Shown: positions 20,620 through 62,302, counted from the first letter of the stretch. The stretch: DNA of 64,000 bases from a virus (IMGVR_UViG_3300024268_000001); one strand, 5' to 3'. Made by a program: numbers and translations. Notes: a model not told the origin generated them from the sequence alone.

Positions 20620-20650
20620 TAAAAACTCCTTTTATAATTTTGTAATATAG

Positions 20651-20680
20651 AAAAAGGGGAGACTTTCGTCAACCCCTATA
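20651..20680 (-). promoter_or_regulatory. conserved promoter/hairpin element, copy 1
   Basis: Plus strand reads aaaaaggggaGACTTTCGTCAAcccctat. On the minus strand this gives GGTTGACGAAAGTC with flanking complementary A/G and C/T runs. Confidence 0.5.
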
Positions 20681-21346: not shown

Positions 21347-21386
21347 ATAATATAGAAAAAGGGCCGACTTTCGTCAACCCTTTATT
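21347..21386 (-). promoter_or_regulatory. conserved promoter/hairpin element, copy 2
   Basis: Plus strand reads cataatatagaaaaagggccGACTTTCGTCAAccctttatt. Confidence 0.5.
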
Positions 21387-24913: not shown

Positions 24914-24943
24914 TTTAAATCTCCATGTTTACGTGGTAAATAT

Positions 24944-24977
24944 AAAAAAAGAGGTGACTTTCGTCAACCCCTTTTTA
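24944..24977 (-). promoter_or_regulatory. conserved promoter/hairpin element, copy 3
   Basis: Plus strand reads aaaaaaagaggtGACTTTCGTCAAcccctttttaat. On the minus strand this is TTGACG - N19 - TATATT, then RBS, then ATG. Confidence 0.55.
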
Positions 24978-32062: not shown

Positions 32063-32479
32063 TTAACCTGTTGTATAAAGCATTTTCTTATAGTCTAAAT
32101 AATTCTTAATAGTAAATCCAAGATTCTTAATATTCGTCAATGTTTCTTCGATAAAATCAAAGTAATACTTCTGTGTATCGTATTCTTTTACTGCTGCAAG
32201 ATATTTCGGATCCTTATAAATTTGGGATTCGATTTCTTTTGTAGTTCCCCAGCTCACATTATCGTTAAACTTATAATAATAATAGCATTCTCCATATATC
32301 TTATTCAAATTAACCTTGAGCTGAGATATAAGATACTTTTGTGTCGTATATAGTTTTGTCCATTTCTGAACAGTAGAAGGTAAAAGGTTATTTACTTGCA
32401 TTACCTGTTCAATATTGTCAGGCAATGCAGTATCTTCTTCAGCGTATTTCTTTAATGTCTCAAAATCTTCTACTTTCAT
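32063..32479 (-). CDS. hypothetical protein
   Basis: 138-aa ORF. A 44-aa single-TM ORF also sits at about 31930-32062 on the minus strand. Confidence 0.45.
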   Translation of the reverse strand: MKVEDFETLKKYAEEDTALPDNIEQVMQVNNLLPSTVQKWTKLYTTQKYLISQLKVNLNKIYGECYYYYKFNDNVSWGTTKEIESQIYKDPKYLAAVKEYDTQKYYFDFIEETLTNIKNLGFTIKNYLDYKKMLYTTG

Positions 32480-32987
32480 AACTTATCCTTAACAATTAAA
32501 TATAGCAAAACTGTAACAAATAGTTTACAACCTATATATAAAAGTTCTATGATTTTTAAAACGACAGAATATTTTATTTTTAGTTAAAAAAATTTTTACA
32601 AAAACTTTCTATTATTGTTTTCACATATTCAAGTCTGATTCCTCGGAACGAAAACCAATCCAATGGAATTATCGGTAGAGGGTCAGCCATTGAAAACTTC
32701 AGATACGGGTTTTCCAGAAATGAGCTGGAATATCGTTTTGAAATATACTCGGTAACAGCTAGTGAAAGTATCAGCGAAGTACAGATTAGCAATCTGCACG
32801 TTTAGCCGCCATGGTTTTAACGGATGTAGCCGAAGTACAGGATGACCGCCTCGTAAGCCGTTATGTAAATCCCTAAAGATTGACGATGAAGCTTTATACC
32901 AAAAGTGGAATAGTCATAGTCTGGAAGTTCCTTCTAGGCTTATGATCTCTGAATCGCATTACCCAAAAGATAGAACAGATAAAAATA

Positions 32988-35970: not shown

Positions 35971-37122
35971 TTAGGCTACATTGTCTCGTTTTACGAAAAT
36001 GGTAAATCCAAGGAAACCAATAAAATAGAGAAGTGCCAAAACAAGATATAAAGTATTGTCAGTAAACAAGTTTCCAAGAATAGGTCCCGCAATTCCAGCA
36101 AATCCCCAGGCACTAAGCGTCATAGAGTGAACTGTAGAAAGACAACTATCTCCGAATCTCTTAGCAAGTAAACTTGGCAAACAACTGAATCCTCCGCCGT
36201 AGTTCCATTCAATCATCAAAATACCAGCTACAAGCAAAATCGGATTTTGTGTATAACACAAAAACGCACCAAGAATACCCAAACTTGCAACCCAATGATA
36301 AGCAGCCTTTCTACCAATCGAATCACTAGCCGTACTCATTCCAAATCGACCACCGACATTTGCAACAGCTGTAGCAGCCATAAGTGAAGCGATAGCAGTA
36401 TATCCAGCATTTAAAAACAGGCTCTTTTCCTGAGAAATAAGTGCAAGGCCGCATGTAATGTTGATAAAGAACATAAACCAAATCGAAATATATTCTTTAG
36501 TCAAAAATTTGGCCTTTATAAGAGTCTTATACGGAATAGCAGTATATTTTGTAGAAATATATGCAGGATTAGGTTTATATAGCCATGAAGAGAAACTCAT
36601 TACAACTAAGAAAATCAATCCCATGAGTAAGAATACAACTGGCAACGTAAAGGTTGCAAGCAAATACTCAATCATAGGAGCCGCAACGAACTTTCCCAAT
36701 CCGAAACCGGTAATAGCCAATCCGGAAGCGAGTCCTTTATGATTACTGAAGTTTGCAAGCAGCTGTTTAATTGGTGCCGTATAGCCTATGCCGGTACCGC
36801 AACCCATAAATGAACAGCCGATATAATAAAGTGGTAAAAATCCAGTATAGGTTGCAAACGAAAGTAGCAATAATCCTATTGCAAACAGAATTGTTGAAAC
36901 TATCGCCATTCGTTTCGGGAACATTTCAACGAATCTTCCGAAAACCGCAGCACCCATGCCAAGGAAGAAAATAATCAGAGTAAATCCAATATCAGCTGAG
37001 AATTTCGAAATATCAAAAGTCTCCATGATATTCTTGGCATATTGTGAATAGTTATAAACTGAACCTAAACTGACAGGTAACAAAATACCCGGAATTAAAA
37101 TATTGAGAAATCTATTTGTCAT
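35971..37122 (-). CDS. MFS-type transporter (about 12 TM)
   Basis: 383 aa. Hydrophobic helices are spaced regularly throughout (e.g. LNILIPGILLPVSLGSVY, GFTLIIFFLGMGAAVFG, LVLALLYFIGFLGFTIFV). Confidence 0.7.
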   Translation of the reverse strand: MTNRFLNILIPGILLPVSLGSVYNYSQYAKNIMETFDISKFSADIGFTLIIFFLGMGAAVFGRFVEMFPKRMAIVSTILFAIGLLLLSFATYTGFLPLYYIGCSFMGCGTGIGYTAPIKQLLANFSNHKGLASGLAITGFGLGKFVAAPMIEYLLATFTLPVVFLLMGLIFLVVMSFSSWLYKPNPAYISTKYTAIPYKTLIKAKFLTKEYISIWFMFFINITCGLALISQEKSLFLNAGYTAIASLMAATAVANVGGRFGMSTASDSIGRKAAYHWVASLGILGAFLCYTQNPILLVAGILMIEWNYGGGFSCLPSLLAKRFGDSCLSTVHSMTLSAWGFAGIAGPILGNLFTDNTLYLVLALLYFIGFLGFTIFVKRDNVA

Positions 37123-37123
37123 A

Positions 37124-37498
37124 TTAATTGAATGCCGTAGTAATAGGGTCTTTGAATACTTCCTTGAATTCGTGTTTGAGTTTCATATTGAAATGCCAAT
37201 ATGGGTCGAATAATGGATCCGTATTTTCAATCAATCCGATAGTATCAGATTCTTCCTTTGGAATGTCCCATGAAATATCAAATATTCCATTATCAAGAAC
37301 ATTTAAAGTAAACTTTATATTCGGACAAGTACCATCCCGGTCAAATATATGACCGAAAATACCAGCAATATCTTCAGTAATGAAATTGCTAGGTGGTTTG
37401 ATAAGTAATTTGTATACGCCTGTTCTGAATTTTATATTATTATCATCTATCTTGTCACGCCAAGTAGATGAATATGTTGAATCATATGTCATTTTCAC
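37124..37498 (-). CDS. hypothetical protein
   Basis: 124-aa ORF. Coupled to the methyltransferase C-fragment. Confidence 0.45.
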   Translation of the reverse strand: MKMTYDSTYSSTWRDKIDDNNIKFRTGVYKLLIKPPSNFITEDIAGIFGHIFDRDGTCPNIKFTLNVLDNGIFDISWDIPKEESDTIGLIENTDPLFDPYWHFNMKLKHEFKEVFKDPITTAFN

Positions 37499-38274
37499 CT
37501 CGTCTTATAACCAAAGGGCAACATTTCGTCCTTTATAAATTCTTTATATTTATACAGTCCGATTTCTTCAATTACCCAATTTTCATCGACGGGTTTAGTA
37601 AAGTCAAAAACAGGAATACAGTCATATTTCGTATGCTGATTAAACTTATAGAGGTAGTTTAAGAACATAGCAATATCAGTATTGCAATAATCTATAAAAT
37701 TTTTGCACTCATCTACCGTAGCAAATCCGATATACTGATTTTTGAGTTTTAAGGCACTTTCGGGGACGTTTTGAACTGGAGTATATCTTTCCTTGGACAA
37801 AAGCGTACACCAGTCCCAGGCTCGTCTATGGCCTCTTATATCGCTTAATTGGATATACCAGGTATTCTTCTTTCCCTGTTCGGTTCCAATAGTCTTTTTT
37901 CCAACCAGATATGCATCTACAATCTTCGTAATTTCCTTATATTTCTCAGGATCCGAAAATCTGTTAAATCGTAAATCATAGAGGTCAAGTTTCTTTTGGT
38001 CAAACTTGAAAATACCTACATCCGAGAAAAATTCAGCATCTTCAAACTTTGCATCACCGACAACGGTTTCAATACGGCTAAAAGACTCAAATCTTTCATT
38101 GAGAATTTCGATATGCTTATTGTTGATATTTTCCTTAATACGATGATTGTCTACAAAATCAGTAGGTACAAGCCAAACGGCGGAATCTGCGAATTTCTCA
38201 CATTCCGACATTACTTTTAAATAAAGCTTTTCGCCTTTACCGATATATGGTGGATTTCCGATTATTGTAAACAT
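37495..38274 (-). CDS. N6-adenine (or N4-C) DNA methyltransferase, C-terminal fragment (motif IV + target-recognition region)
   Basis: Begins 'MFTIIGNPPYIGKG', which is catalytic motif IV (NPPY). The rest is a TRD-like region. Confidence 0.7.
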   Translation of the reverse strand: MFTIIGNPPYIGKGEKLYLKVMSECEKFADSAVWLVPTDFVDNHRIKENINNKHIEILNERFESFSRIETVVGDAKFEDAEFFSDVGIFKFDQKKLDLYDLRFNRFSDPEKYKEITKIVDAYLVGKKTIGTEQGKKNTWYIQLSDIRGHRRAWDWCTLLSKERYTPVQNVPESALKLKNQYIGFATVDECKNFIDYCNTDIAMFLNYLYKFNQHTKYDCIPVFDFTKPVDENWVIEEIGLYKYKEFIKDEMLPFGYKTR

Positions 38275-38663
38275 AGAAGGTCACGTTCAGCTTGTAGATT
38301 AGAAATAACTTTTAAAAAATCTCCGTCGTTATTTATTGTAATGGTCCAATCCTTACCGCTAACTACGTCGCCGTGCAAAAATTTGACATCACAAGAACTC
38401 GGTTGAATACTGAAAACTTTATCATCATATTTTTCTTGACTTTCATAGATGGCTTTAAATTTCTTTGAACAAAAACCAACACCAGAATATAAATTCGGGG
38501 CTTTAAATAAACCATAACAACATGGCAATCTTCCAAGGTTACTACTATAGTCCTGGCTTGAGAAATAACAGACTCTATCTATTAAATCGGAAGTAACAGA
38601 ATGTTTAATTGTCTTATCATTTCGAACAATCGAGAATTTAATCTTTTTCTTAAACCAAAGCAA
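38262..38663 (-). CDS. small protein, member of a 3-gene paralog insert
   Basis: '...LHGDVVSGKDWTITINNDGDFLKVISNLQAERDLL'. Compare the 38650 and 38975 products. Confidence 0.5.
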   Translation of the reverse strand: MLWFKKKIKFSIVRNDKTIKHSVTSDLIDRVCYFSSQDYSSNLGRLPCCYGLFKAPNLYSGVGFCSKKFKAIYESQEKYDDKVFSIQPSSCDVKFLHGDVVSGKDWTITINNDGDFLKVISNLQAERDLLCLQ

Positions 38664-39045
38664 TTTCAGTCTCCAGGTTATAAATCAATTTTTCAAAACT
38701 AAATTGAGAATCTAATGTAATCGTCCAGTCATGGCATTTAACAGTATCGCCAAGCTTGAAACTCGCGCCACAATCATCAAGATTCTTATAGCTAGAGCCA
38801 AACATTACATCCTGATATTCTTCCGGGTACAATACCATGTATTTTGTAAATTCTTGATTATCATTAGTAAAACTTAATCGGGTATCGTCTTTTCGAGAAG
38901 AATTACAAAGGTAATATTTTCGTGTTTTACCGTTATGAACAATCTTTACTCTTAAAGTATTAGAACTATGTCTTCTACTGCAATACATATTCCATTTCCA
39001 AGTTGTTGAAGAGACGTTTAAAATCACCAGTAGTATTAAGTTCAA
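38650..39045 (-). CDS. small protein, member of a 3-gene paralog insert
   Basis: '...KLGDTVKCHDWTITLDSQFSFEKLIYNLETEIALV'. Confidence 0.5.
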   Translation of the reverse strand: MNLILLVILNVSSTTWKWNMYCSRRHSSNTLRVKIVHNGKTRKYYLCNSSRKDDTRLSFTNDNQEFTKYMVLYPEEYQDVMFGSSYKNLDDCGASFKLGDTVKCHDWTITLDSQFSFEKLIYNLETEIALV

Positions 39046-39433
39046 TAGTCCAGGTAGGAAATACTACCTTATCGCCACGTTTGAGAATATATGTTGCATC
39101 ACATGGATATACATGAGAACCATAATGTACACGTGTTTCAACTTCATCATGTTCAGACATATATCTTACACCAAATCCATAAATTTCTTCAGGTGTTGGA
39201 TTATGCAGCTGACCCATCGAAAGAATATCATAATATTGCGACATACTATCAAAACGTTGTGTCAAATCCGGCTTATATTTATCGCTGCTATAAATTGTAG
39301 TCTTAAACCAAGGCGCATATTCGAGACGACTTGAACGACCATTTCGAAAAACAGTAAATAAAACCGGTTTTTCATGTTTCACCGATTCTTTGGTTTCAGG
39401 CTCATCATAGATATGTTTATAATCTGTCAACAT
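38975..39433 (-). CDS. small protein, member of a 3-gene paralog insert
   Basis: '...LKRGDKVVFPTWTIELNTTGDFKRLFNNLEMEYVLQ'. Confidence 0.5.
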   Translation of the reverse strand: MLTDYKHIYDEPETKESVKHEKPVLFTVFRNGRSSRLEYAPWFKTTIYSSDKYKPDLTQRFDSMSQYYDILSMGQLHNPTPEEIYGFGVRYMSEHDEVETRVHYGSHVYPCDATYILKRGDKVVFPTWTIELNTTGDFKRLFNNLEMEYVLQ

Positions 39434-39879
39434 ACAAATTCCGCAAATCCGCTATTTTCAATTTTTGTTTCATCGACTTCTTCTTTAGGTTTCCAGTTTT
39501 CAAAATCCCACTTAAAGAAATCGGCACATACAATATTTTTGTTTACAATTTTACTGTATTTAGGTCCAACAATTTCAAGAATTCTTTGGACACACAAATC
39601 TCTGTTATCCTGCATTAATTCAACACCGTAAAGTGTCTTTACTGCATCTTCAACCGAAATTCCAGAAGCAAGACGTTTTTCAAGCATACGAACAAGGATG
39701 TTTCCGCTTCCCGCTGTAGGATCCAAAAATGTGGCTTTAGGGTCTTTCCATTTTTCTTCAGGAATTTTAGTAATCATTTGGTCAATAACTGCAAATGGTG
39801 TAAATACTTCACCGTTCTTGGTGATACGTTCTTTAGAACGTTGAATTCCATCATTAGTAGTAAATAACTCTTTAGACAT
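39427..39879 (-). CDS. DNA methyltransferase, N-terminal fragment (SAM-binding motifs X/I-III)
   Basis: 'GEVFTPFAVIDQMI' (motif X-like), 'FLDPTAGSGNIL' (motif I, FxGxG) and 'IVCADFF' (motif III). Ends 25 aa later, and the NPPY motif is missing. Confidence 0.7.
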   Translation of the reverse strand: MSKELFTTNDGIQRSKERITKNGEVFTPFAVIDQMITKIPEEKWKDPKATFLDPTAGSGNILVRMLEKRLASGISVEDAVKTLYGVELMQDNRDLCVQRILEIVGPKYSKIVNKNIVCADFFKWDFENWKPKEEVDETKIENSGFAEFVC

Positions 39880-39916
39880 AATTTAAATATAACAATTTTT
39901 CTTAATTTTGTAAGCG

Positions 39917-40699
39917 CTATCGTGATGCATAGCTTTCAGACCAGTCTTCTTTTTCGATAGCATGCATTTTTGCATATGAATCTTTACTGTCACCTTCAAA
40001 TTTAGCCAAATCACTTAGTAAATCACAGTTATGCATAATTGCTTTTGCGGTACATTCCTTAAATCTTCTAACATCATCACTGTTTTTAATTGAAAGTATG
40101 GCATTCAAGTTATAGAAAAAACAATCCATATCTTCTTTATCTGAATTTACTCTAATAGTCTGACATGTATGATAAAAACCTTTTGTTTTTCCAATAGAAT
40201 ATATACAATTTTTTATAATGTTTGCTCTGGCAGAATTTTTATTTACAAACATTTTTCCAAGTTCATAAGTATCAAAACTATATTCTAGTTCATAAAATCT
40301 ATATTCATATCTATATGTTTTAGGGTCATTTTTCAAATGATATTTTCCAACTCTTTTATTATATCTTGCACGTATATTTAAAATAACATCATTATCCGAA
40401 TGTTTTATATTGAAAATGATGGTAGAATATGGTATAATATCTGTAACTTCTTCAGGTTCAATTATAGAACCATTATATGTTACTGGTGCTTTATTAAATG
40501 CCGAAACATCATAACCGCATACTTCAATACCATATTTTTCAAACAGTTTAATAATCTGAAAAATTTCACCTTTTCTAGCTGTTATTTCTTTCTTTGTCTG
40601 TTTGATTTTATCAATAACTTTATTATACTGCTTGATGGGTTTATCAAGAAGTTTGTTAATATCGTTTCCAATTTTAATATCTAAATCTTTCATAATCAA
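39917..40699 (-). CDS. family-B protein (paralog of the 41096 and 42054 products)
   Basis: Shares the block 'D.FF.L...L.......RF...T.KA...N...L' with the 41096 and 42054 products. Confidence 0.5.
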   Translation of the reverse strand: MIMKDLDIKIGNDINKLLDKPIKQYNKVIDKIKQTKKEITARKGEIFQIIKLFEKYGIEVCGYDVSAFNKAPVTYNGSIIEPEEVTDIIPYSTIIFNIKHSDNDVILNIRARYNKRVGKYHLKNDPKTYRYEYRFYELEYSFDTYELGKMFVNKNSARANIIKNCIYSIGKTKGFYHTCQTIRVNSDKEDMDCFFYNLNAILSIKNSDDVRRFKECTAKAIMHNCDLLSDLAKFEGDSKDSYAKMHAIEKEDWSESYASR

Positions 40700-41094
40700 C
40701 CAGGCAAAACATCAAATGTTTGTTCAACAGCATGCATTTTTAAACGTAAATCGATTTTATAAAAATCAACCTCTCCATCATAGATAGCTTTCAAAAAGAT
40801 TTTAAGATCTTCTCTTTCCATCTTATTAAACCAGAACATATGCATATCATCGTTCGGTTTATTTCCATTATGGATTGACATAGCGCTACTGTGAAGTTTT
40901 ACGCACAACTGATGTCCTGGTAAATGATAATAAACCGAATGATAACCCTTTATAAATCCAAAAGTTTTCAAAAATGCATCCATAATATCACGTATATGGT
41001 CAGCAAACGCTGGAGCTTCATCCAGACATTGCATAAAATACGCAAGTTTCATCTCTTTTGGCATATCTGCAAAATTTGAAAGTTTAAATTTCAT
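40696..41094 (-). CDS. family-C small protein (paralog of the 41672 product), C-terminus '...VLPG'
   Basis: 132 aa. Ends 'FDVLPG'. Confidence 0.5.
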   Translation of the reverse strand: MKFKLSNFADMPKEMKLAYFMQCLDEAPAFADHIRDIMDAFLKTFGFIKGYHSVYYHLPGHQLCVKLHSSAMSIHNGNKPNDDMHMFWFNKMEREDLKIFLKAIYDGEVDFYKIDLRLKMHAVEQTFDVLPG

Positions 41095-41095
41095 A

Positions 41096-41668
41096 TTATT
41101 CGAGTTTGTTAATTGATTTTAACATCAATAAGTTTTGTTTTGCTGCCTTACATGTAAAATCTCTGTATCTGATAAAATCATCTTCAGTAGTTATTTCGGT
41201 TAATGCATCAATTAGCATAAAGAATGTATCTACCTTTTCTGGTTCGGTATCGGCAAAAATCTGAATGAACGGTGTTTCATTAGTAGCCCTAGCGTAATGA
41301 TATTTTATTGTATCTTTCTTAGCTACATATCCGCCTTTATGACGAATAGACAAATATAGACGACCATTTAATTCTTCTTTTTTAGAAGCAGAAACATTAT
41401 AATTTAAAACTACAGAATGTGTATTTTCTTTACGAATATGAATTGCTGCAAACTTATTATCATTAACTGCATCAATAGATGGTTCTATTACTTCATGGTA
41501 TATAATTTTATATCCTCTTGAAGTAATCATATTTTCAAGAATTTCTGCATCTTCTTTATTTTTCTCATATATAGAACGAAACCGGTTAATAGCCCGGTCG
41601 CGTAAATTATTATAATATTCTTTTATACGCTCAATATTGTCGTCTACTATATTTGAAAATTTACACAT
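41096..41668 (-). CDS. family-B protein
   Basis: 'DTFFMLIDALTEITTEDDFIRYRDFTCKAAKQNLLMLKSINKLE'. Confidence 0.5.
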   Translation of the reverse strand: MCKFSNIVDDNIERIKEYYNNLRDRAINRFRSIYEKNKEDAEILENMITSRGYKIIYHEVIEPSIDAVNDNKFAAIHIRKENTHSVVLNYNVSASKKEELNGRLYLSIRHKGGYVAKKDTIKYHYARATNETPFIQIFADTEPEKVDTFFMLIDALTEITTEDDFIRYRDFTCKAAKQNLLMLKSINKLE

Positions 41669-41671
41669 ATA

Positions 41672-42070
41672 TTACCCAGGTAATTTGTCGATTGCTTCTT
41701 TCACTTCGGCTTCTTTAATTGCTAAACAATACTTTCTGTAATATTCTAAAAAGTCTTCTTTAGATTCGTCATCTACATAATGCATTATAACCGCTGGAAG
41801 AAGAGTCATTTCATCACTGCAAATTTTAAAACTCTGCTCAAGATTTATTATCTCCAGCAATGTACAAAAATTATTAGTCTTTGCAGATTCAATAGCTGCA
41901 TTTTCCGGCGCAGTTACAACAATATTTCCATCAATGTAAAATTTTACTAATTCTTTATAAAGATTACTAACTTCACATGTAATAACTTTGCATTTGGCAA
42001 AATTTAAACACGTGTATTTATTAGTACCAGGTGAAGAATGTAGTAACAGCATATTAATCCAGCTTTTCAA
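41672..42070 (-). CDS. family-C small protein, C-terminus 'EAIDKLPG'
   Basis: 132 aa. Ends 'KEAEVKEAIDKLPG', the same tail as the 57-63 kb array. Confidence 0.5.
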   Translation of the reverse strand: MKSWINMLLLHSSPGTNKYTCLNFAKCKVITCEVSNLYKELVKFYIDGNIVVTAPENAAIESAKTNNFCTLLEIINLEQSFKICSDEMTLLPAVIMHYVDDESKEDFLEYYRKYCLAIKEAEVKEAIDKLPG

Positions 42071-42647
42071 TGCATTTCAATGTTTCCATATCTTGACGTG
42101 CCATATAGCATACGCCAGTTCTGTAACGTTCTGAATTCTGGTTTTTACGTACTTCTTCCAATTCGTTGAGCAAATTGAAGAAAATATCCTTCAATTCTTT
42201 CGGGCTGTCGACACGTACATGACAACGAGGACGTGCATTCATAGCGCTAATCATAACATTTCGCTGTGCTTCCCAATCATCGCTATATGCATTGTTGTAC
42301 ATGGTATCGTCGAATGTCGCACGCATAGTTACATAGTAACGGCCGGTTTTCTTCTTGTTGTTACTGGCCATATCGATATGGTGCTTAATTCCGTCTTTTC
42401 CCTTTTGAACAATAAACGGAACACGGTTTGATTCAAAATTGAAAACAGAAAAACCGATAATGGAATATCCATATTCAGCAAACATGGTTTCAAAATGCTT
42501 AAGCTGATTTTCATAGATCTCTTGGAGTTCTATGCTTCTACGACGCTTGGAGTCGATAGCATGCTTAATATGCTCGATTTGTTCAAGCATTTTGTTTTCG
42601 TCTTTTGTAACTGCGGCATTTACTGCTTCTAAGAAATTTTTATACAT
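42054..42647 (-). CDS. family-B protein
   Basis: 'DIFFNLLNELEEVRKNQNSERYRTGVCYMARQDMETLKCIEKLD'. A -10 hexamer lies 6 nt before the ATG. Confidence 0.5.
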   Translation of the reverse strand: MYKNFLEAVNAAVTKDENKMLEQIEHIKHAIDSKRRRSIELQEIYENQLKHFETMFAEYGYSIIGFSVFNFESNRVPFIVQKGKDGIKHHIDMASNNKKKTGRYYVTMRATFDDTMYNNAYSDDWEAQRNVMISAMNARPRCHVRVDSPKELKDIFFNLLNELEEVRKNQNSERYRTGVCYMARQDMETLKCIEKLD

Positions 42648-42661
42648 GACTATAATATAAT

Positions 42662-42690
42662 AAAAAGGCTGACTTTCGTCAACCTTTTTT
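42662..42690 (-). promoter_or_regulatory. conserved promoter/hairpin element, copy 4
   Basis: Plus strand reads aaaaaggctGACTTTCGTCAAcctttttt. On the minus strand this is GGTTGACgaaagtcagcctttttatTATATTatagtcATG. Confidence 0.55.
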
Positions 42691-42710: not shown

Positions 42711-44027
42711 TTAATCTTGTTTCAAAGTTACATTAATTTCATAACCCTTACCGTACTTATAGTTAGGAATATACTTAGTAATGAATTCTTCGAAATATTC
42801 CTTATTTTCCGGATAAGTAAGGTTATAAGTATTACCGTCCATATCTTCTTCAGCTAGGTCGTAATTCAATTCTTTACTACAGAACTTAGTCCAGTTTTCC
42901 GGAGTTCCTGTAATCTTGAGAGCCCAGGTTCTTTCGGAATATGTGGTAAAGTAAGTAATATAGTTGGAATTTTCACCATATGGACCATAGTGACCCCAGT
43001 CTGCAACCGGTTCTTCATCAACATCCTGAGAAACAGTAGCTTGTGTATGCTGTTCGGAAACATTCAAACCGAAATCGGCAAAGAAATCCTTGATAGCAGC
43101 AGTATCTACCCATGTCCAAGATTTACTAGAATCAAAATCGGCCTTTCTGTGAATCATACCAATGGTAGTGCTACCCATTTGTTGAGCATCCTTACCGAGT
43201 GCATTAGCTTCAGCACGTTTTTTCATAGCACGCTGAAGCATTTCCTTACGGGTTTCAGCAGTCTCCTTCGGAGCTTCTTCACCCTTCTTAGGTCTGTAAT
43301 CTTCAAGACCATAGGCCTTTGCATTCATGTGATATGTTCTACGGCCTTCCGGTGTACGATTGTCCGCAGCCTTTGTCGTTTCGTGCTTAATGTAAGTATT
43401 GACAATAAGAGTAATTTCGTTAGTTGCTTCGTTGAGAACCGCTTCATAGCCTAGACGCTTGAGGGTTTCAAGTGCTTCTTCAACTTTGTTTTTACCCTTA
43501 TCAGACTTCTTAGACTTAAACGCAAACCACTTGGACTTCTTGTTTTTCTTCTTACCTCCACAGCAGCAACTTTCGTTTTCGAGGTTCGTTTCTGGATCCA
43601 CATAGGAATCATCTTCGAGACCTGTTTGCTGTTCGTCCTGGACTGCCTGTTCTGGAGTACCGAACATCTTAACGAATTCATCATAAGAAGTTTCATTGAA
43701 CCATACCGGAATTTCAGTATCGTTCATTTCCGCCTTCCAAAGTTCATCGTCACCGTCAAACGGATAATTGAGGTCCTGTAAACCATTTACCGGCAATGCG
43801 TCATGCCAAAGAGTATACTGGTCATCTTTACCGCCGAGTGCTTCGTATTCTTCGAACCAATCATTACCGGTCTTTCCGGAATTATCACAAGAACCGTCAG
43901 CACAAGAACCGTCGCCGCATTCATTTATGAAATTATTGCGGAAAGCACGGAATTCATTCCTGAACTTGAATTCTGCAGGAAGTGAATCTAAATGTTGTTC
44001 ATCGTGAGAATACATTAACACCTCCAA
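42711..44027 (-). CDS. acidic, Cys-cluster-containing hypothetical protein (438 aa)
   Basis: 'CGDGSCADGSCDNSG' and 'SCCCGGKKKNKKSKW'. Confidence 0.5.
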   Translation of the reverse strand: MEVLMYSHDEQHLDSLPAEFKFRNEFRAFRNNFINECGDGSCADGSCDNSGKTGNDWFEEYEALGGKDDQYTLWHDALPVNGLQDLNYPFDGDDELWKAEMNDTEIPVWFNETSYDEFVKMFGTPEQAVQDEQQTGLEDDSYVDPETNLENESCCCGGKKKNKKSKWFAFKSKKSDKGKNKVEEALETLKRLGYEAVLNEATNEITLIVNTYIKHETTKAADNRTPEGRRTYHMNAKAYGLEDYRPKKGEEAPKETAETRKEMLQRAMKKRAEANALGKDAQQMGSTTIGMIHRKADFDSSKSWTWVDTAAIKDFFADFGLNVSEQHTQATVSQDVDEEPVADWGHYGPYGENSNYITYFTTYSERTWALKITGTPENWTKFCSKELNYDLAEEDMDGNTYNLTYPENKEYFEEFITKYIPNYKYGKGYEINVTLKQD

Positions 44028-51242: not shown

Positions 51243-51947
51243 TTACTTATTACTTACAGAAGTATCAACCTTGGAAGTATTTGCGAAGTTGTAAATAAAT
51301 CCGTATGGTGCTTTCTTCTTAATAAGCGTTGTTAAGCGGCTAATAAACTTCTTAAAGAAATTTTCTCCTGCTCCAGAAATAGTCAACTTAATGAAGTCTT
51401 GTTTTTCATCGCCTTCGATTAAATCAACGTTTATTTTAACAGGATTGTCTTCCTTATCAAGATTTTCCAAATAATTATCGGAAATTACCTGAATTGCTTC
51501 CTTAAGATTCTGTTCGATTTTTTGAACAACAACGCCCCTAAGTTTTTCATTAGAGAAATCAAAACCAGTTTCTTTTTCGGCTTCAAGAATAATACTATCC
51601 AAATCTAAACCAAAAGCTTCAGAAACATTAATTTCGATAAGTTTGATGTTGGAAAAACTTTTAATCTTATTGATAATTTCAGTATATTTTTTATTTGCAC
51701 CAGCCTTATCAAATTCGCCTTCCGGTGTCTGCATATTACCAAGGGATTCAATAGCTTGCTTAATATTTGACTTATTGATAGCAACTTTATAGACAAAATT
51801 ACGGCTGTTCATTTCCTTAACTTTGTCCTGCTTATCCTGTTCGTCTTTTTCTGCCTGTGCAATGTCGAATTTATCTTTTGCAATCTTTGCAACACGATCG
51901 AAAAGTTTTTGTGCTTTAAAAACGGATGCTTCAAATAAATTTGTCAT
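51243..51947 (-). CDS. hypothetical protein
   Basis: 234-aa ORF. Confidence 0.5.
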   Translation of the reverse strand: MTNLFEASVFKAQKLFDRVAKIAKDKFDIAQAEKDEQDKQDKVKEMNSRNFVYKVAINKSNIKQAIESLGNMQTPEGEFDKAGANKKYTEIINKIKSFSNIKLIEINVSEAFGLDLDSIILEAEKETGFDFSNEKLRGVVVQKIEQNLKEAIQVISDNYLENLDKEDNPVKINVDLIEGDEKQDFIKLTISGAGENFFKKFISRLTTLIKKKAPYGFIYNFANTSKVDTSVSNK

Positions 51948-53524: not shown

Positions 53525-54217
53525 TTAATCCTGGATTTTTGTCGCTGTAAAGTTATGTTTTTTGAGGACCAAAAGAGCTTCTTCCAGATTTTTATCCATT
53601 TCTTCGGATTTGTCTTCTTGTTCTGGTTGTTCCTTAGTTTCTTCTTCCTTTTCTTCAGCAATTGGACTGTCTACAGGCATTATATAAGTAATAGCCTCAT
53701 CCCAAGACATACCCTTATATTTTGAATCTGGTTCAAAATATGTGGACTGATTTTCTTTACCAAGGTCTGCACGATAAACGAGCTTCGCACCGTCGGCATA
53801 TTCAAGGAAGTTGTTTCCGTCGACTAACTTACCCTTTCCAATAACACCGTTAGTGACCTTTGCATTTGCAACATCTTCAACATCGGATTTCATTCCAGCT
53901 GCAAACTGCTTAAATCTTCCAAGAATTTCTTCAGCCTTTTCGATACCTGCCGTTATACGAGAATTGATAGCTGACATATTCGGAGATTCCTTTGCGTTTC
54001 CAGAAGTATTAAGGAAAAGGACTGCCGCGACGATAGTGCTCAAGAGAATCTGTGTAAGATTGTTATCTACATTAGAATTCTGAATTTCCTGTTTAATATC
54101 ACCGGCATCAGACATAAGCTGTTCTTTTTCGTTTTCGGTTTTTGCGCCTTTTGCAAAATTTACAAATGTCTTAACCTTGTTAAATAGATTGTCTAGTTTC
54201 TGTGCTTCGTTAATCAT
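53525..54217 (-). CDS. hypothetical protein (230 aa)
   Basis: ORF with an acidic C-terminal region. Confidence 0.5.
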   Translation of the reverse strand: MINEAQKLDNLFNKVKTFVNFAKGAKTENEKEQLMSDAGDIKQEIQNSNVDNNLTQILLSTIVAAVLFLNTSGNAKESPNMSAINSRITAGIEKAEEILGRFKQFAAGMKSDVEDVANAKVTNGVIGKGKLVDGNNFLEYADGAKLVYRADLGKENQSTYFEPDSKYKGMSWDEAITYIMPVDSPIAEEKEEETKEQPEQEDKSEEMDKNLEEALLVLKKHNFTATKIQD

Positions 54218-54918: not shown

Positions 54919-55230
54919 TTAAAGCTTCTCGATAGCATTATTAGTTCTAAATTTTTCGACAGCGACGGTAAACTTATCATAATTTTCCTTATTATAAAGG
55001 TCCCCGTATTTTGTACCATTCAGAATAACACAATCATTCTTGTTCTTGGTTATCATATACCACGATTTGGTATTATTCATTTGGTCTACTTTAATTTGAA
55101 TAACACCACCTTTTACGATTAAACTCGTAATATCGGTGAATTCCACACGTTTTTGTGAATAACGACCCGTACTTATAAATAGTTCATTTTTCATATTATA
55201 TAATATAACAAACTTAATCCAGTTTGTCAA
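54919..55230 (-). CDS. small protein with a '...NNAIEKL' tail (family-related)
   Basis: The ORF-track start at 55230 is a TTG, inside a TTGACA hexamer. The likely ATG start is at 55194, preceded by TTGACA-N17-TATATT. Confidence 0.45.
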   Translation of the reverse strand: MTNWIKFVILYNMKNELFISTGRYSQKRVEFTDITSLIVKGGVIQIKVDQMNNTKSWYMITKNKNDCVILNGTKYGDLYNKENYDKFTVAVEKFRTNNAIEKL

Positions 55231-55528
55231 TAGCTTTTTCTACGTTATATTTTTCAATATACGGCGAAATCAGGTCTATAAATTCATGTATAGGTTTTGT
55301 TTTGTCAAAATGTATGCTAATATCATTATACATGAAATAGGCTTCAGCTTCTATATCGTTTGGGTCTATCATAATAGATATTCTTTGATGAGTAAATTCA
55401 TCTTCATAACAACAGCCCAAATAACCGTCTGCGTCATTAGCATATATCAATTCTCCGACACTCCACATAACCCGGTGGTTTCTATTAATCATACGTAATT
55501 TTATAGTAGGCGGTCTCTGCATACTCAT
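55214..55528 (-). CDS. small protein with a '...VEKAIDKLD' tail (family-related)
   Basis: A promoter TTTACA-N17-TATATT abuts the ATG, so the mRNA is possibly leaderless. Confidence 0.45.
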   Translation of the reverse strand: MSMQRPPTIKLRMINRNHRVMWSVGELIYANDADGYLGCCYEDEFTHQRISIMIDPNDIEAEAYFMYNDISIHFDKTKPIHEFIDLISPYIEKYNVEKAIDKLD

Positions 55529-55561: not shown

Positions 55562-55590
55562 TTGACGGTTTTAAAATATTTTGCTATATT
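55562..55590 (+). promoter_or_regulatory. sigma70-like promoter (TTGACG-N17-TATATT), 6 nt before the ATG
   Basis: Sequence cccGTTGACggttttaaaatattttgcTATATTattagcATG. A divergent promoter for the minus-strand block lies immediately to the left. Confidence 0.55.
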
Positions 55591-55596: not shown

Positions 55597-55923
55597 ATGA
55601 CAAAACCTAAGATTTTAATCTATCATTTTTCGTATGACCCAGAAGAGTTCGATATTGATAGGTTTAATGATTTCGTTATCAGAGAGAATTTGTCAACGGG
55701 TACAGCTTTAGCTGTACCGTTGACTTCTCCAAAATTACGTAGTATTAGGAACAGAATTGCATTTATTCCGCAAAGTCATTTTAATCATAAAGATGTATAT
55801 TTTATGATAGATGACGTAAAATATGAGTTTCCCGGTAAACCGCTTCATGAAATTTATAAAACAATGTCAGAAGCAATATATGAAAAAATAGTAGAATATA
55901 AGCTTTCGGTGTTAAATGGCTAA
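55597..55923 (+). CDS. small protein (family-related, plus-strand block gene 1)
   Basis: 108 aa. C-terminus '...EAIYEKIVEYKLSVLNG'. Confidence 0.5.
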   Translation: MTKPKILIYHFSYDPEEFDIDRFNDFVIRENLSTGTALAVPLTSPKLRSIRNRIAFIPQSHFNHKDVYFMIDDVKYEFPGKPLHEIYKTMSEAIYEKIVEYKLSVLNG

Positions 55924-56257
55924 TATAGTAGCGTTTAGATATACAGAAAAATACAAGCCACTTTTAGGTGGTAAAGAAATCCCAGTAAGTCAAATGAATT
56001 TCAATGACGAAATTCATGCATATTCCAATTTATATAAAGGATATACAACAGTCGCTTTTTGCGGTATAAAGAAATGGGCCGAGGCTGAATATACTCTTTA
56101 TTATTATGTCAAATGGTTTGCTACTGAAGAGATAAGATTGAGCTGGGACGATAATTGCTATGTCATTTATGATGGTGTCAAATATACTACTGTAGAAAAA
56201 CTGTATGCCGCGATAGAAAATAAGAAAAATCTAGCAATACTTGATACTTACCTATAA
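55916..56257 (+). CDS. small protein (family-related, '...KLYAAIENKKNLAILDTYL')
   Basis: 113 aa. 8-nt overlap with the upstream gene. Confidence 0.5.
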   Translation: MANIVAFRYTEKYKPLLGGKEIPVSQMNFNDEIHAYSNLYKGYTTVAFCGIKKWAEAEYTLYYYVKWFATEEIRLSWDDNCYVIYDGVKYTTVEKLYAAIENKKNLAILDTYL

Positions 56258-56335: not shown

Positions 56336-56914
56336 TTAAATTGCGTCAGTACCAGAACGATTTTCGATAATCTTGAAGATTGCTTCAAGCTTCGGTTTTA
56401 AAGTTTCCTCTGCCTCGTCGAAATCTTCAGCCATATACGGAATCATTTCCTTGATGGCTTCTGTAACTTTAGCACGGATAGAATCCTCTTTTTCTATAAC
56501 TTCTGTTTCGCCCCAACCTGGGTCATAGGTTCCGAAATCACGTCCATCCCAGCTTGGTTCTTCGCCAGTATAGCGAACTTCGACTTCGATTGAATTACCG
56601 TCACCGCCTGTAGAATCATACTGCTCATCGAAATCCTTAACAAAACCAGGAAGGATCTCTTCGATTTTGGCGACTTCTTCCTTTGTAACGCCCAAGCGAC
56701 AAGTCAAATCAAAAGACTTCTTAAGCGGATTACCATGATAATCCAGCAATTTATCAATATAGATAGGAACTTTTACTGTGTCATCATTATAATGTTCACA
56801 GACATATCCGTTATTTTCCAAAATAATCAAAGATTCGCTTACTTTCATTATAACCTCATTTTTATTATTTATAGCATTGACGAAAAGTGAATCTCTTGCT
56901 ATATTTAGTAACAT
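56336..56914 (-). CDS. hypothetical acidic protein (192 aa)
   Basis: Lone minus-strand ORF between the two plus-strand blocks. Confidence 0.5.
   Translation of the reverse strand: MLLNIARDSLFVNAINNKNEVIMKVSESLIILENNGYVCEHYNDDTVKVPIYIDKLLDYHGNPLKKSFDLTCRLGVTKEEVAKIEEILPGFVKDFDEQYDSTGGDGNSIEVEVRYTGEEPSWDGRDFGTYDPGWGETEVIEKEDSIRAKVTEAIKEMIPYMAEDFDEAEETLKPKLEAIFKIIENRSGTDAI
56877..56905 (+). promoter_or_regulatory. sigma70-like promoter (TTGACG-N17-TATATT) for the array operon
   Basis: Sequence caTTGACGaaaagtgaatctcttgcTATATTtagtaacATG. The -35 region resembles the conserved GTTGACGAAAGT element. Confidence 0.55.
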
Positions 56915-57492: not shown

Positions 57493-57822
57493 ATGATTAA
57501 TGTTATTTTTACAAATGACGGATATACACAACAACATGATGTTGCTGAAATTGATAACGTCAATATAGACGAACATCCTAGTTTTGTAGAAGCATGTGAG
57601 CAAAAAGACATCGTTAATAATACCATGATAACTCTTACATGGAGATCTTCAGATTATCATGGATTATATGTTTTAAAGCTTGGAACATTTCCGCTTTATA
57701 AGGCATATTTAGAAATTGACGGAAAGAAATATATGTATACCGACATAATGAAAAATATTGAAAAATTCAAAGCCAGGATTGAACAGGAAAAAGTTAAACT
57801 TGCATTGGAGACATTAGCATGA
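57493..57822 (+). CDS. array family member 1 (conserved C-terminal helix)
   Basis: Ends '...YTDIMKNIEKFKARIEQEKVKLALETLA'. Its stop overlaps the next ATG. Confidence 0.6.
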   Translation: MINVIFTNDGYTQQHDVAEIDNVNIDEHPSFVEACEQKDIVNNTMITLTWRSSDYHGLYVLKLGTFPLYKAYLEIDGKKYMYTDIMKNIEKFKARIEQEKVKLALETLA

Positions 57823-58106
57823 TTAAGTTTACACTTGATGGTAGAAACTATGAAATCGAATCCATGCAAGATTTTTCTCTTTGGGTTCATTACGAATCAA
57901 AACATAGAAAACGAGAAAACTATATTAAAGCAGAAGTACGTCCTGTAGGTTATGAAGCACATCATGTTTTTGAACTGAGAAACGAAGATAGTATACAGAT
58001 TGACGATAAAAAGTTTGACCTTCCATATATTTGTGAACATTTTGATTTGATTAAATCTAAAATTTTACATAATCTTGAACTTAAATGCCTGGATAATTTA
58101 GCATGA
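57819..58106 (+). CDS. array family member 2
   Basis: Starts MIKF. Ends '...ICEHFDLIKSKILHNLELKCLDNLA'. Confidence 0.6.
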   Translation: MIKFTLDGRNYEIESMQDFSLWVHYESKHRKRENYIKAEVRPVGYEAHHVFELRNEDSIQIDDKKFDLPYICEHFDLIKSKILHNLELKCLDNLA

Positions 58107-58387
58107 TTAAACTTATTAGAGAATATCATTATTCGCGTTCAGATGACCATTATGTAGTAAAGCAACTGTTTGGTTTTGAAAAATCTAGTAATGGCATAAG
58201 TCTTTTCTTTGAAGACCAAATGGGAAAAAACCAAATGATAAATACAGCCGATACAGAAAAAACAGAAACAAAACTGTATATAAACGACATTCTTTATACA
58301 AACAAAGATATTATGTGGAAATTTGATAAAATTTCTGCACTGTTAACTCAAGATATAAATTTGACAGCTATTGAGTCTCTTCCATAG
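58103..58387 (+). CDS. array family member 3
   Basis: Starts MIKL. Ends '...KDIMWKFDKISALLTQDINLTAIESLP'. Confidence 0.6.
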   Translation: MIKLIREYHYSRSDDHYVVKQLFGFEKSSNGISLFFEDQMGKNQMINTADTEKTETKLYINDILYTNKDIMWKFDKISALLTQDINLTAIESLP

Positions 58388-58395
58388 AGGAATAT

Positions 58396-58764
58396 ATGGA
58401 TTTTGAAAAAATAAAGAAAAATGAATGTTTTTCGAAACAGATGATTCTGGATAATCCAAATCAGCCATATATTTTTAGATATGATAAATGGGATAATTAT
58501 GACCTGATTATACCAATAGAAACCAATGATTCTACTACCCATATACTTGGTGCGGTTTTCCATTATGAAGATGAAAATACATATTTATACAACGGTTGTT
58601 CTTATATAAATCTTCTCGGTGTAAATCTTAAGAGTATGAAATTGTTTACTCCGCAAAAAGAAATCGAATATGATGCATCTGTTGATGATTATCATGATTT
58701 TAGAGATAAAGTTATTATGGTGTTAAATCAATTCGAATCCATAGAGGCCGTGGATAGATTATGA
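58396..58764 (+). CDS. array family member 4
   Basis: Ends '...FRDKVIMVLNQFESIEAVDRL'. ATGA junction. Confidence 0.6.
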   Translation: MDFEKIKKNECFSKQMILDNPNQPYIFRYDKWDNYDLIIPIETNDSTTHILGAVFHYEDENTYLYNGCSYINLLGVNLKSMKLFTPQKEIEYDASVDDYHDFRDKVIMVLNQFESIEAVDRL

Positions 58765-59108
58765 AGTTCATTGTAAAAATCGGTAATAATATAGCCATAA
58801 CATATGAGATGATAGCTCTCGAAGGCATATTTATCGAAAGGCCGAGTACTAAATTTACAAATTCACAACAGGACATGATTGATTACAAAACAATCTATAT
58901 CCATTTTCATTATTCAAAGAGAAACAACCGCGAAGTACATGCCAATATAACTATGCCTATTGGTGAATTTCTTGACGGTAATAAAATGATGTATATAGAT
59001 GCTGGAAAAGAACAGATTTATTACAAAGATATTGTTGCAAATCCGGCAAAAGCAGCAGTCAGGATAAATAACCTCATTTTACTTGATACTATCGAGGCTT
59101 TGCCATAA
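58761..59108 (+). CDS. array family member 5
   Basis: Ends '...YYKDIVANPAKAAVRINNLILLDTIEALP'. Confidence 0.6.
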   Translation: MKFIVKIGNNIAITYEMIALEGIFIERPSTKFTNSQQDMIDYKTIYIHFHYSKRNNREVHANITMPIGEFLDGNKMMYIDAGKEQIYYKDIVANPAKAAVRINNLILLDTIEALP

Positions 59109-59118
59109 CAGTATTACT

Positions 59119-59406
59119 ATGTTAATAGAGCTTTATCCAAATAAAAAATATAGAGTGCCATCTAAAATTAAGCACGTCAATAAAATTGTTGCCGAAAAAA
59201 CGGAACCTCTTTCATTTATTGATTTTATAGATACAGATGATAAACCGCATATCATGGTTATCGGTACAGAATCTATAATAGTAGTTGACTATGGACCGGT
59301 TGAATTACCTTTAATATTTAGTTATAAAGATATATTAGAAAATCCGGAAGCTATTACAGCAAAACTACATAATTTAGAAAACGAAGCTGTACTTGACAGA
59401 TTATAG
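59119..59406 (+). CDS. array family member 6
   Basis: Start taken at ATG 59119 (MLIELYP...). Ends '...YKDILENPEAITAKLHNLENEAVLDRL'. Confidence 0.55.
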   Translation: MLIELYPNKKYRVPSKIKHVNKIVAEKTEPLSFIDFIDTDDKPHIMVIGTESIIVVDYGPVELPLIFSYKDILENPEAITAKLHNLENEAVLDRL

Positions 59407-59409
59407 CCA

Positions 59410-59438
59410 TTGACAAAAATGAGATTTTTTGCTATATT
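59410..59438 (+). promoter_or_regulatory. internal sigma70-like promoter (TTGACA-N17-TATATT)
   Basis: Sequence ccaTTGACAaaaatgagattttttgcTATATTaaaaccATG. Confidence 0.5.
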
Positions 59439-59444
59439 AAAACC

Positions 59445-59762
59445 ATGATTAGACTTATCATGGAATCAAAACCTCATGAACAATGGGAACAGCATAGGCA
59501 GTTTAAAGTAAAATCTGCCGTTCTTATTAAGCAAAAAACTCATAGTCAATATGAGTCGGATTTGATTGTCCAATATACGTCGTTTAATAATAGTTCTTAT
59601 AATAGTTATGGATTTGAAGCTCAATTTGAAAAAGAAACGCATAGATTATTGCTTGAAATCGGCGGCGAAGTTTACGGGCATGATGATTTGATTAAAAACG
59701 TCGATAAGTATAATGCATTGCTGGAAAACGAAGCTATAAAAGAAGCAATAGACAGATTATGA
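59445..59762 (+). CDS. array family member 7
   Basis: Starts MIRL. Ends '...HDDLIKNVDKYNALLENEAIKEAIDRL'. Confidence 0.6.
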   Translation: MIRLIMESKPHEQWEQHRQFKVKSAVLIKQKTHSQYESDLIVQYTSFNNSSYNSYGFEAQFEKETHRLLLEIGGEVYGHDDLIKNVDKYNALLENEAIKEAIDRL

Positions 59763-60055
59763 TTCGAATAATATACAGACAATATAATGAAAAAACCAAG
59801 AAATGGGAAATGAATTTAGCATTTCCCGTTTATCAAGCGGAATTGTCTGTTAATACTAATAAATTAATCGATATTAAATATAAAAATTATTACGGTCATG
59901 ATTTCTTAACAACATTCAAGAATTCTAATGATACACAGATGACGCTTGAATTTGATGATGAAGAATATAGTATTCTTGATATGATTAATAATTTTGATAA
60001 AGTAAAGTCAAAAGTTTATAACGAATACCTACATGATATTTTGGAAGCATTATGA
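59759..60055 (+). CDS. array family member 8
   Basis: Starts MIRI. Ends '...ILDMINNFDKVKSKVYNEYLHDILEAL'. Confidence 0.6.
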   Translation: MIRIIYRQYNEKTKKWEMNLAFPVYQAELSVNTNKLIDIKYKNYYGHDFLTTFKNSNDTQMTLEFDDEEYSILDMINNFDKVKSKVYNEYLHDILEAL

Positions 60056-60390
60056 TTAAAGTTGTCAGAAAAATGACATATGATAATGAACCCACGACCA
60101 CGACATTTTATGTTCTTGGTCCTTATGTTTTTCGTACAGTAGTAAGTTCTAGACAATATATTTGTTTAGGCTATACTGATATTAAAAGAGAAATTAAAGA
60201 GCCGTATGAACATAAACCAAATTATTTTATTTTAGGAATTGTTACCAATTCCTCAGGTAAAAATTATAATACATGGCTTGAAACAGACGCTGGCACGTTT
60301 ACTGACCAATATATAGATAAACATCTGGATAAAGTCAACGCTATATTGACTCAGGAATCCAACAAAGAAATTCTTGATTGCCTACCATGA
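60052..60390 (+). CDS. array family member 9
   Basis: Starts MIKV. Ends '...DKHLDKVNAILTQESNKEILDCLP'. Confidence 0.6.
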   Translation: MIKVVRKMTYDNEPTTTTFYVLGPYVFRTVVSSRQYICLGYTDIKREIKEPYEHKPNYFILGIVTNSSGKNYNTWLETDAGTFTDQYIDKHLDKVNAILTQESNKEILDCLP

Positions 60391-60686
60391 TTAGTGTGAC
60401 CCAATATAAGAAAGATAATACGTTCCATTCAAAAGTGGATTTGCCGACCTATACTAATAAAAATTGGAATCCTTATTTAAGTAATAATCCGTATCATCAA
60501 TATAGGCTTTATATAGCATATGTTTCGCCAGTAGGTAGACTTGAATCCGTATATCTGGATCCTCGAAGTATATTAAGAATCGGCGACCAAACATATGATT
60601 TTAATTATATGCAAAAAAATATGGACCGTATCAATACGTTGATAGAACAGGAAATAACTCGAGAAGCTATAGAGAAACTGCCATGA
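60387..60686 (+). CDS. array family member 10
   Basis: Start at the ATGA overlap (MISVTQY...). Ends '...NMDRINTLIEQEITREAIEKLP'. Confidence 0.6.
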   Translation: MISVTQYKKDNTFHSKVDLPTYTNKNWNPYLSNNPYHQYRLYIAYVSPVGRLESVYLDPRSILRIGDQTYDFNYMQKNMDRINTLIEQEITREAIEKLP

Positions 60687-61003
60687 TTAAACTTGCTATT
60701 TATCATTTAGACGAAGGTATAGACGCTAAAATAATAGAATGGGGAGAAATACAAGAAATCGGTTATGGCGATTTTTATTTTTGTTATAGAGTGAATAATG
60801 GAAATCATCCGCAATATATCTATTTAACAAATACTGAACATAGATATGTTTCAGTTTTTATTAACGAAAAAGAATATATTATTACAAATCCTCACAGCCC
60901 ATCTGGACCCACAATTAGCCGACTTTTAAAAATTAAAGATAAAATTAATGCTTTAATAGTACAAGAAAATATTAAAACTGCAATCGATTCTTTGCCGGGG
61001 TAA
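60683..61003 (+). CDS. array family member 11
   Basis: Starts MIKL. Ends '...IKDKINALIVQENIKTAIDSLPG'. Confidence 0.6.
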   Translation: MIKLAIYHLDEGIDAKIIEWGEIQEIGYGDFYFCYRVNNGNHPQYIYLTNTEHRYVSVFINEKEYIITNPHSPSGPTISRLLKIKDKINALIVQENIKTAIDSLPG

Positions 61004-61005
61004 TA

Positions 61006-61353
61006 ATGGTTGAAATTATAACAAAACGACATACCAATTCAAAAGATTATATCAATCGTAAAGTTTCTGGGCTTTATTTAACTGCTAGAGATGAATATTC
61101 AGATGGCCAAATAGATAAAATGAACGGTATCGTAGTAACTGCAACATTTAAATATGTTGATAATGACCAAAAGAGTTATTCATGGATTCTTGGGCATTTT
61201 AAATATTGGACAGGTACAGCAATTCATAATTATACTAATTATATTAAAGTAGGTAAACTAAGTTTTTGGTATAAAGATATAATTGAAAATGTTGATAGAA
61301 TCAATGCACTCATTCAGCAAGAATATTTAAAAGACGCATTGGAGAAATTATAA
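61006..61353 (+). CDS. array family member 12
   Basis: Ends '...YKDIIENVDRINALIQQEYLKDALEKL'. Confidence 0.6.
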   Translation: MVEIITKRHTNSKDYINRKVSGLYLTARDEYSDGQIDKMNGIVVTATFKYVDNDQKSYSWILGHFKYWTGTAIHNYTNYIKVGKLSFWYKDIIENVDRINALIQQEYLKDALEKL

Positions 61354-62298: not shown

Positions 62299-62302
62299 GG
62301 GT

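Follow-up and report, generated by a model that had tools for sequence, protein, structure and literature searches.

In a window of viral DNA of 64,000 nucleotides (IMGVR_UViG_3300024268_000001; all positions are those of this whole stretch unless a relative is named), which is part of a T4-like jumbo phage of ~420 kb from rumen-type metagenomes, genes at 37.5–42.7 kb and elsewhere encode proteins that end in a similar 'KL(P/D/E)' tail, and the same ending closes the members of a tandem gene array further along. The question raised by this locus is whether the tail is a portable functional tag placed on structurally different proteins, as a preliminary description of the DNA proposed, or the visible end of a larger unit that was inherited together with it. 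We favour, with slightly better than even confidence, the reading that the block is an early cassette region and that the tail is the end of a C-terminal module inherited mostly by descent. The tail would terminate a module of 22–40 residues, consisting of a beta-hairpin followed by an amphipathic helix, and this module would define a lineage-specific, much-expanded superfamily of ~100 amino acid (aa) proteins; the window has 17 copies in tandem and one or more additional full-length members, and a relative has 30 or more in tandem.

The tail, in the form 'AIExLP', has its source in a tandem array of 17 paralogs of 93–128 aa at 57493–63399 (+). The last ~38 residues of these proteins read roughly YIEIN..(Y/F).Y.DI..N.D.I.ALI.QE...AIE.LP, and along the helix the conservation covers polar positions (N, D, QE, E) in addition to hydrophobic ones. 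An HMMER scan of 1.84 billion representative proteins returned only 57 relatives of the array, of which 56 are single-domain proteins of 61–128 aa with the same terminal motif; the remaining one, P0088 (1032 aa), was rejected as a spurious repetitive protein. An AlphaFold model of one member (62813–63112; 99 residues), built with the 57-sequence alignment, has a pLDDT of 94.9 and a pTM of 0.84 and consists of seven beta strands followed by helices at residues 72–77 and 79–96. The terminal helix lies inside the domain model with a pLDDT of 95–98. The array tail is thus predicted to be the last two turns of a single C-terminal helix that caps a seven-strand beta-sandwich; in the superfamily as a whole, a Pro or Gly residue would end this cap helix at the C-terminus. 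Copy number differs between close relatives: a 418 kb relative (L008) carries at least 30 adjacent array copies at its positions 1–10297 (+), versus 17 in the window. The array proteins are mildly acidic (median pI 5.5, range 4.5–9.1), and the idea that they are DNA mimics was rejected because their acidity is only mild. An unrelated acidic open reading frame (ORF) of 147 aa at 62357–62800 (+), which has a promoter of its own, breaks the array. Literature searches found no description of the array family.

Recurrence of the tail outside the array was assessed with a nine-column matrix anchored on the conserved Leu and built from the 17 array genes, using a cut-off of 6 bits; 93% of 45 independent array-family representatives reach this value. 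Ten of the 97 non-array genes reach it at their extreme C-terminus; the rate at 17,236 internal positions predicts 0.36 (Poisson P = 6e-12). The count of 10 was not attained once in two control sets of 2000 each, in which either the matrix columns were permuted or the last 12 residues of each protein were shuffled. The presence of the tail on genes outside the array is therefore real, beyond chance or composition, and in this respect the preliminary description was right, also with composition controlled. The similar endings that it listed elsewhere in the window are present as well: AIDKLD (gene 55214), AIEKL (54919), ALKKL (63396) and ALEVLG (63713).

How far the similarity extends beyond the tail was examined with hhalign, by setting the 57-sequence array profile against every one of the 97 non-array genes; C2 (see below) was retested with orthologs added. 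The gene that ranks first is C1 (gene 41672; P = 1.9e-6, probability 89.6%), which aligns over 29 columns in register to the last residue. It is followed by 54919–55230 (-) (rank 2, P = 2.6e-6, 88.7%, 42 columns), 55916–56257 (+) (rank 3, P = 2.8e-6, 88.3%, 53 columns) and 55214–55528 (-) (rank 4, P = 6.9e-5, 63.2%, 26 columns), whose alignments end at the C-terminus or at most two residues from it; 54919 is also a near full-length match to the array family by HMMER (1e-5). Similarity over 26–53 residues in these four genes points to a homologous module rather than to a tag of 3–6 residues. By this sequence comparison, several carriers, including C1, are diverged homologs of the array over 26–53 residues, and the shared unit is a putative helix module of at least 22 residues, not a 'KLP' tag. 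C2, with orthologs added, is borderline for the superfamily, matching the array (P = 1.4e-4) and C1 (P = 1.8e-4) over the terminal 22 columns each.

The remaining families did not match the array profile at a comparable level: P was 0.02–0.03 over six to seven columns for family B, 0.66 for three small paralogs at 38–39 kb, and 0.007–0.02 for family D. When HMMER was iterated over a local set of 630 proteins, neither C1 nor C2 was drawn in, and the same holds for B and D. Family D is a further paralog family of two genes at 63396–63937 (-), namely those ending in ALKKL and ALEVLG; six D paralogs ending in LEVLG or LEKL, homologs of 63396 and 63713, lie in L008 at 10294–12658 (-), after the array and on the opposite strand. 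For most tail carriers, C1 included, the tail would have come by descent, through duplication, divergence and cassette insertion, and not by transplantation of a short tag. The proposal of a portable tag that is not part of one fold is weakened, since the array tail is integral to the modelled fold and four carriers resemble the array over 26–53 columns. Family B has a really different body, and its match to the array covers six to seven residues and is not conserved.

Family B comprises B1 (197 aa, 42054–42647 (-), ending LKCIEKLD), B2 (190 aa, 41096–41668 (-), ending LKSINKLE) and B3 (258 aa, 39917–40693 (-)). Their paralogy (BLASTP 7e-9 and 1.5e-4) and the D.FF block, both noted before, were confirmed: in a full-length alignment of the three window genes with 15 database relatives, which displays an E..D.FF block and a C-terminal helical hairpin, D154, F156 and F157 are invariant and E151 is nearly so. 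The predicted model of B1 suggests an alpha+beta fold with an architecture unlike that of the array. The endings INKLE and IEKLD ascribed to the family apply to B2 and B1, but not to B3, which has DLAKFEG at this point and then a 25-residue extension. B1 and B2 stop at the tail position, and their length of 190–197 aa is above the superfamily size. The tail matrix gives 16.9 bits for B1 in this strain group, whereas B1 orthologs of 63–66% identity (ending LNLLNSLD or LNLLNTLD) score 0.7–5.3; B2 scores range from -1.7 to 3.6 (3.6 for the window copy), and those of B3 are negative. The likeness of the B1 tail is best read as strain-specific drift over six residues of an unrelated terminal helix, within the limits of its hydrophobic periodicity.

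The two genes that alternate with family B were described as a second paralog family. C1 (41672–42052 (-)) encodes 126 aa from the ATG at 42052, with an ORF that reaches a TTG at 42070, and ends in KEAIDKLPG; C2 (40696–41094 (-)) encodes 132 aa and ends in EQTFDVLPG. The endings EAIDKLPG and DVLPG are thus there, but the genes are not paralogs: over their full length BLASTP gives E > 100, and the last 22 residues alone align, as described above. The C2 ortholog in L004, a relative of 63% identity, ends in EEALDSLPG and scores 17.6 bits with the tail matrix, whereas the window C2 scores -1.6 bits. L004 is without C1 and has the gene order B-B-C-B. C1 represents a precise cassette insertion or deletion, bounded by TAA/TAG-T-ATG stop-start junctions. 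B3 is decaying in relatives, being cut to 197 aa in L002 and split into pieces of 65 aa and 80 aa in L010.

Promoter-like sites place these genes in an early expression context. The pattern TTGAC-N18-TATATT occurs at 11 sites, versus 0.12 expected, all in the sense orientation and just upstream of genes: on the minus strand at 12222–12250, 18688–18716, 20644–20672, 21349–21377, 24939–24967, 42654–42682 and 55202–55230, and on the plus strand at 55562–55590, 56877–56905, 59410–59438 and 62302–62330, the last belonging to the acidic ORF that breaks the array. Five of the 11 promoters are followed by a 25–27 nt leader with ATAAACAA(A/G)AGGAG; in six, the distance from the -10 box to the ATG is 6–8 nt, which suggests leaderless early mRNAs. 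Directly upstream of B1, a hairpin (42689–42662) and a promoter (TTGACG-17-TATATT; 42682–42654) together occupy 42654–42689 (-). The -10 box of this promoter ends 6 nt before the ATG, and the transcript from which B1 is translated probably has no leader or almost none. The core TTGACGAAAGTC...CTTTTT is common to 42689–42654 and the sites at 20644, 21349 and 24939; of these four, 42689–42654 was scored as a PeSL-like terminator-promoter hairpin with a T-run. Genes downstream of B1 are joined by ATGA or TAATATG junctions. Because a promoter in a hairpin lies 6 nt before B1 and stop-start junctions follow, the block looks like an early operon with stop-to-start coupling of the genes after B1.

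Such coupling allows the tail to be explained at the nucleotide level, its codons being conserved as a re-initiation or ribosome-binding context, for slow termination after Pro, or as a -35 box. The next start lies within 0–4 nt for most tail genes, and 'LPG' endings place GGG or GGT 5–6 nt before the next ATG. In addition, the promoter at 55202–55230 (-) takes its TTGACA box from the I-D-K codons (ATT GAC AAA), and the L-D-R codons (CTT GAC AGA) at the end of gene 59083, at 59393–59420 (+), form a -35 box. However, the codons for Leu (TTA/CTT/CTG/CTA/CTC/TTG), Ile (ATT/ATC/ATA), Ala and Glu/Asp vary synonymously, TTGA is found in only five of the 17 array tails, conservation reaches ~38 residues upstream, and the tail is intact in 58103, 59083, 62017 and 63109 (the last gene of the array), which have no coupled downstream start. 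Synonymous variation and the tail in uncoupled genes indicate that selection acts on the protein. Nucleotide-level constraint as the reason for the tail is therefore rejected as largely refuted and very unlikely; overlap with a -35 box is occasional, and the final Pro, Gly, Asp or Glu codon, at most, may be shaped by the junction. Still less credible is the view that a B gene and a C gene work together as a two-gene unit, of the toxin-antitoxin or enzyme-partner type, which was duplicated to give the order B-C-B-C-B. The genes do alternate within a single, tightly coupled operon, and both C proteins are ~130 aa long and end in LPG. The bodies of C1 and C2, however, are dissimilar beyond the last 22 residues, and since they are not homologous there is no duplicated two-component module; the order in L004 and the truncation or fragmentation of B3 in L002 and L010, where the adjoining genes are retained, argue in the same direction, and searches of PADLOC, Pfam and NCBIfam gave no match. 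The duplicated B-C module of the preliminary description is accordingly abandoned.

Two further readings concern the protein itself. A chance or composition effect of Lys/Glu/Ile/Leu-rich amphipathic helices in an AT-rich phage would suit a short motif made of common residues, and the match of family B is not significant; for the set as a whole this effect is refuted by the counts and randomizations given above and is extremely improbable, whereas for family B alone it is the most likely reading. More substantial, yet still doubtful, is the reading in which an acidic amphipathic helix of 22–29 residues ending in LP(G) has been grafted as a portable docking element onto unrelated early proteins, tethering them to a common partner such as a phage or host hub or mixed oligomers. 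Several observations favour such grafting and weigh against descent as the general explanation. C1 and C2 share with the array the terminal helix only, over the last 22–29 residues and without recruitment by HMMER, so that a shared helix on unrelated bodies is possible; by eye, the start of C2 would seem helical, in contrast to the array, which is all-beta before its terminal helices. Nearly all carriers stop 0–2 residues after the conserved Leu (56 of the 57 relatives, the L008 copies, C1, C2 and several families), in single domains of ~60–130 aa, which could point to a need for a free C-terminus. When the four proven homologs are set aside, six C-terminal matches remain versus 0.71 expected, and conservation extends to polar helix positions. 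A further point against the descent reading is that the array, B, C and the small paralogs have no known-family match in Pfam, PHROGs, PADLOC or NCBIfam, where only the two methyltransferase halves gave real hits, and that PDB and BFVD gave none either (PDB profile searches with two family alignments yielded nothing meaningful), so that a function for the module is not indicated. Against docking, the array helix is an integral, high-pLDDT part of its domain, the B tail is conserved among neither orthologs nor paralogs, the window C2 tail is degenerate, and fusion of the tail module to a larger or known domain was found nowhere among the 1.84 billion representatives. Nor does the behaviour of an exposed tag or degron fit, because the array helix is packed in the domain model and the tail of B orthologs is unconserved. 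Applied to C1, C2 and D, portable docking is unlikely to doubtful; that the helix serves structurally unrelated early families (the array, both C genes, D and perhaps B1) by tethering their variable binding domains, dozens in all, to a single hub is plainly unlikely. If it were so, the hub could be a host protease or another host machine, in the manner of the SspB adaptor or poxvirus PRANC, or the helix could drive mixed paralog oligomers, and the phage would hold a combinatorial host-takeover toolkit.

Under the favoured reading, that of a module inherited mostly by descent, the constant helix would be a structural or assembly element, and the paralogs would use their variable sheet and loops to bind different targets during host takeover. 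The proteins would then act early in host takeover, each with a variable binding domain that the constant helix caps or assembles. The region at 37.5–42.7 kb would be an early-transcribed, fast-changing gene-cassette region of the jumbo phage, holding the three genes of family B, C1 and C2, and the three small paralogs inside a split methyltransferase.

These small paralogs (38975–39433, 38650–39045 and 38262–38663, all on the minus strand; E 4e-6 to 1e-4) end in NLEMEYVLQ, NLETEIALV and NLQAERDLLCLQ. Their paralogy and their endings agree with the preliminary description, but a relation to the array tail does not hold up in the profile comparison, and one of the three reaches 6 bits with the tail matrix; they are thus judged to be without the array tail. 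They separate the two ORFs that together encode an N6-adenine DNA methyltransferase: an N-terminal half of 150 aa with the AdoMet motif DPTAGSGN at 39427–39879 (-) (PF02384, 1.5e-6; phrog_21201, 5.6e-23), and a C-terminal half of 259 aa that starts with MFTIIGNPPY at 37495–38274 (-) (phrog_11371, 2.5e-12). Both halves match phrog_11371 at opposite ends, in permuted order. The split arrangement is kept in L005, L006 and L010, and the third small paralog is frameshifted in L002. Genes for DUF7487 (PF24308), which may be mobile genes, are inserted near the methyltransferase and B3 in L002 (15021–15452) and L010 (6967–7893 and 10343–11479), and are absent there in the window.

An internal motif, [EKDQ][ASTK][LIVM]xx[LIVM]xxx[GN][YFW], exemplified by EEALETLKRLGY ('EALxxLxxxGY'), was also considered and rejected: it occurs five times versus 0.93 expected, yet shuffles reach five, and the excess is not significant. 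The proteins concerned are encoded at 42711–44027 (residue 184), 53525–54217 (residue 213), 56336–56914 (residue 27), 32063–32479 and 51243–51947. C2 and the B and D proteins show a looser form of the motif when inspected by eye.

The assignment of the element to a T4-like jumbo phage follows from contig sizes, neighbouring genes and a structured RNA. Metagenome contigs with proteins identical to those of the window are 224–424 kb long and include SHIW14-1_SAMN02144231 scaffold_4 (423,840 bp) and JGI 3300028833. Genes near the block encode UvsY, DHFR, a tail tube protein, the clamp loader, a 5'-3' exonuclease and RNA ligase; small genes of unassigned function sit among these replication and nucleotide-metabolism genes, and below ~55.5 kb the minus strand carries tightly packed genes. 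A megablast comparison of the window with known phages gave no match, and for a neighbouring protein of 642 aa tblastn gave only 24–30% identity, to cyanophages S-CRM01 and S-CBWM1 and gut phage Phass-1. The cow-rumen-2 RNA (Rfam RF02947) is matched over its full length at 32773–32877 (+) (102.8 bits, E = 1e-18), which places this orphan RNA motif in a jumbo phage. It is antisense to the surrounding minus-strand gene block. A major facilitator superfamily transporter (PF07690, 383 aa) is encoded at 35971–37122 (-) and is kept in all relatives examined.

Jumbo phages of the gut and rumen carry hundreds of genes without known function. The present analysis defines an uncharacterised, lineage-restricted family among such genes, with 17 to at least 30 tandem copies per genome, a confidently predicted fold and a sharply conserved C-terminal helix, and tells true paralogy (B, the array and the small genes) apart from look-alike endings. 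If the helix is a common docking or assembly element, a 25-residue peptide would provide a handle on the targets of dozens of early proteins; if it does not serve in docking, the locus would still be a clean case of family expansion and cassette turnover in a huge phage.

Several known systems invite comparison. A possible counterpart of the fold predicted for the array protein is the pleckstrin-homology-like fold, a seven-strand beta-sandwich with a C-terminal helix cap. Conserved C-terminal tags and docking tails include the ssrA degron, the ClpX-binding tail of SspB, the membrane-targeting helix of MinD and the clamp-binding tails of T4 gp33, gp55 and gp43, which are flexible or exposed and basic or aromatic. 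As in those systems, a short conserved element occupies the extreme C-terminus of different proteins; unlike them, the helix here is acidic and amphipathic, is packed in the domain according to the model, and is not conserved on family B. Multigene expansions are also known in large DNA viruses, such as the MGF360 and MGF505 families of African swine fever virus and the poxvirus ankyrin proteins with a C-terminal PRANC/F-box-like helix. The array resembles these in that paralogs stand in tandem by the dozen, that their bodies vary whereas a C-terminal helix stays constant, and that close relatives differ in copy number; no sequence or structural relation is known, however, and the helix here is predicted to lie in the domain core.

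For the block as a whole, the T4-type phages offer a parallel, because their hyperplastic (ORFan cassette) regions carry PeSL composite terminator-promoter motifs (Arbiol et al., 2010, PMC2839356; Comeau et al., 2014, PMC4122927). As in T4 hyperplastic regions, small ORFans in the window form a block among replication and nucleotide-metabolism genes, and close relatives differ by whole-gene insertions and deletions; as with a PeSL, an early promoter of the sigma-70 type lies inside the hairpin that precedes B1 and the genes after it, and three other sites share its core. The differences are that the present phage is ~2.5 times larger than T4, that the mapped C1 insertion or deletion ends at a stop-start junction (TAA-T-ATG) and not at a PeSL, and that six of the 11 promoters lie only 6–8 nt from the ATG.

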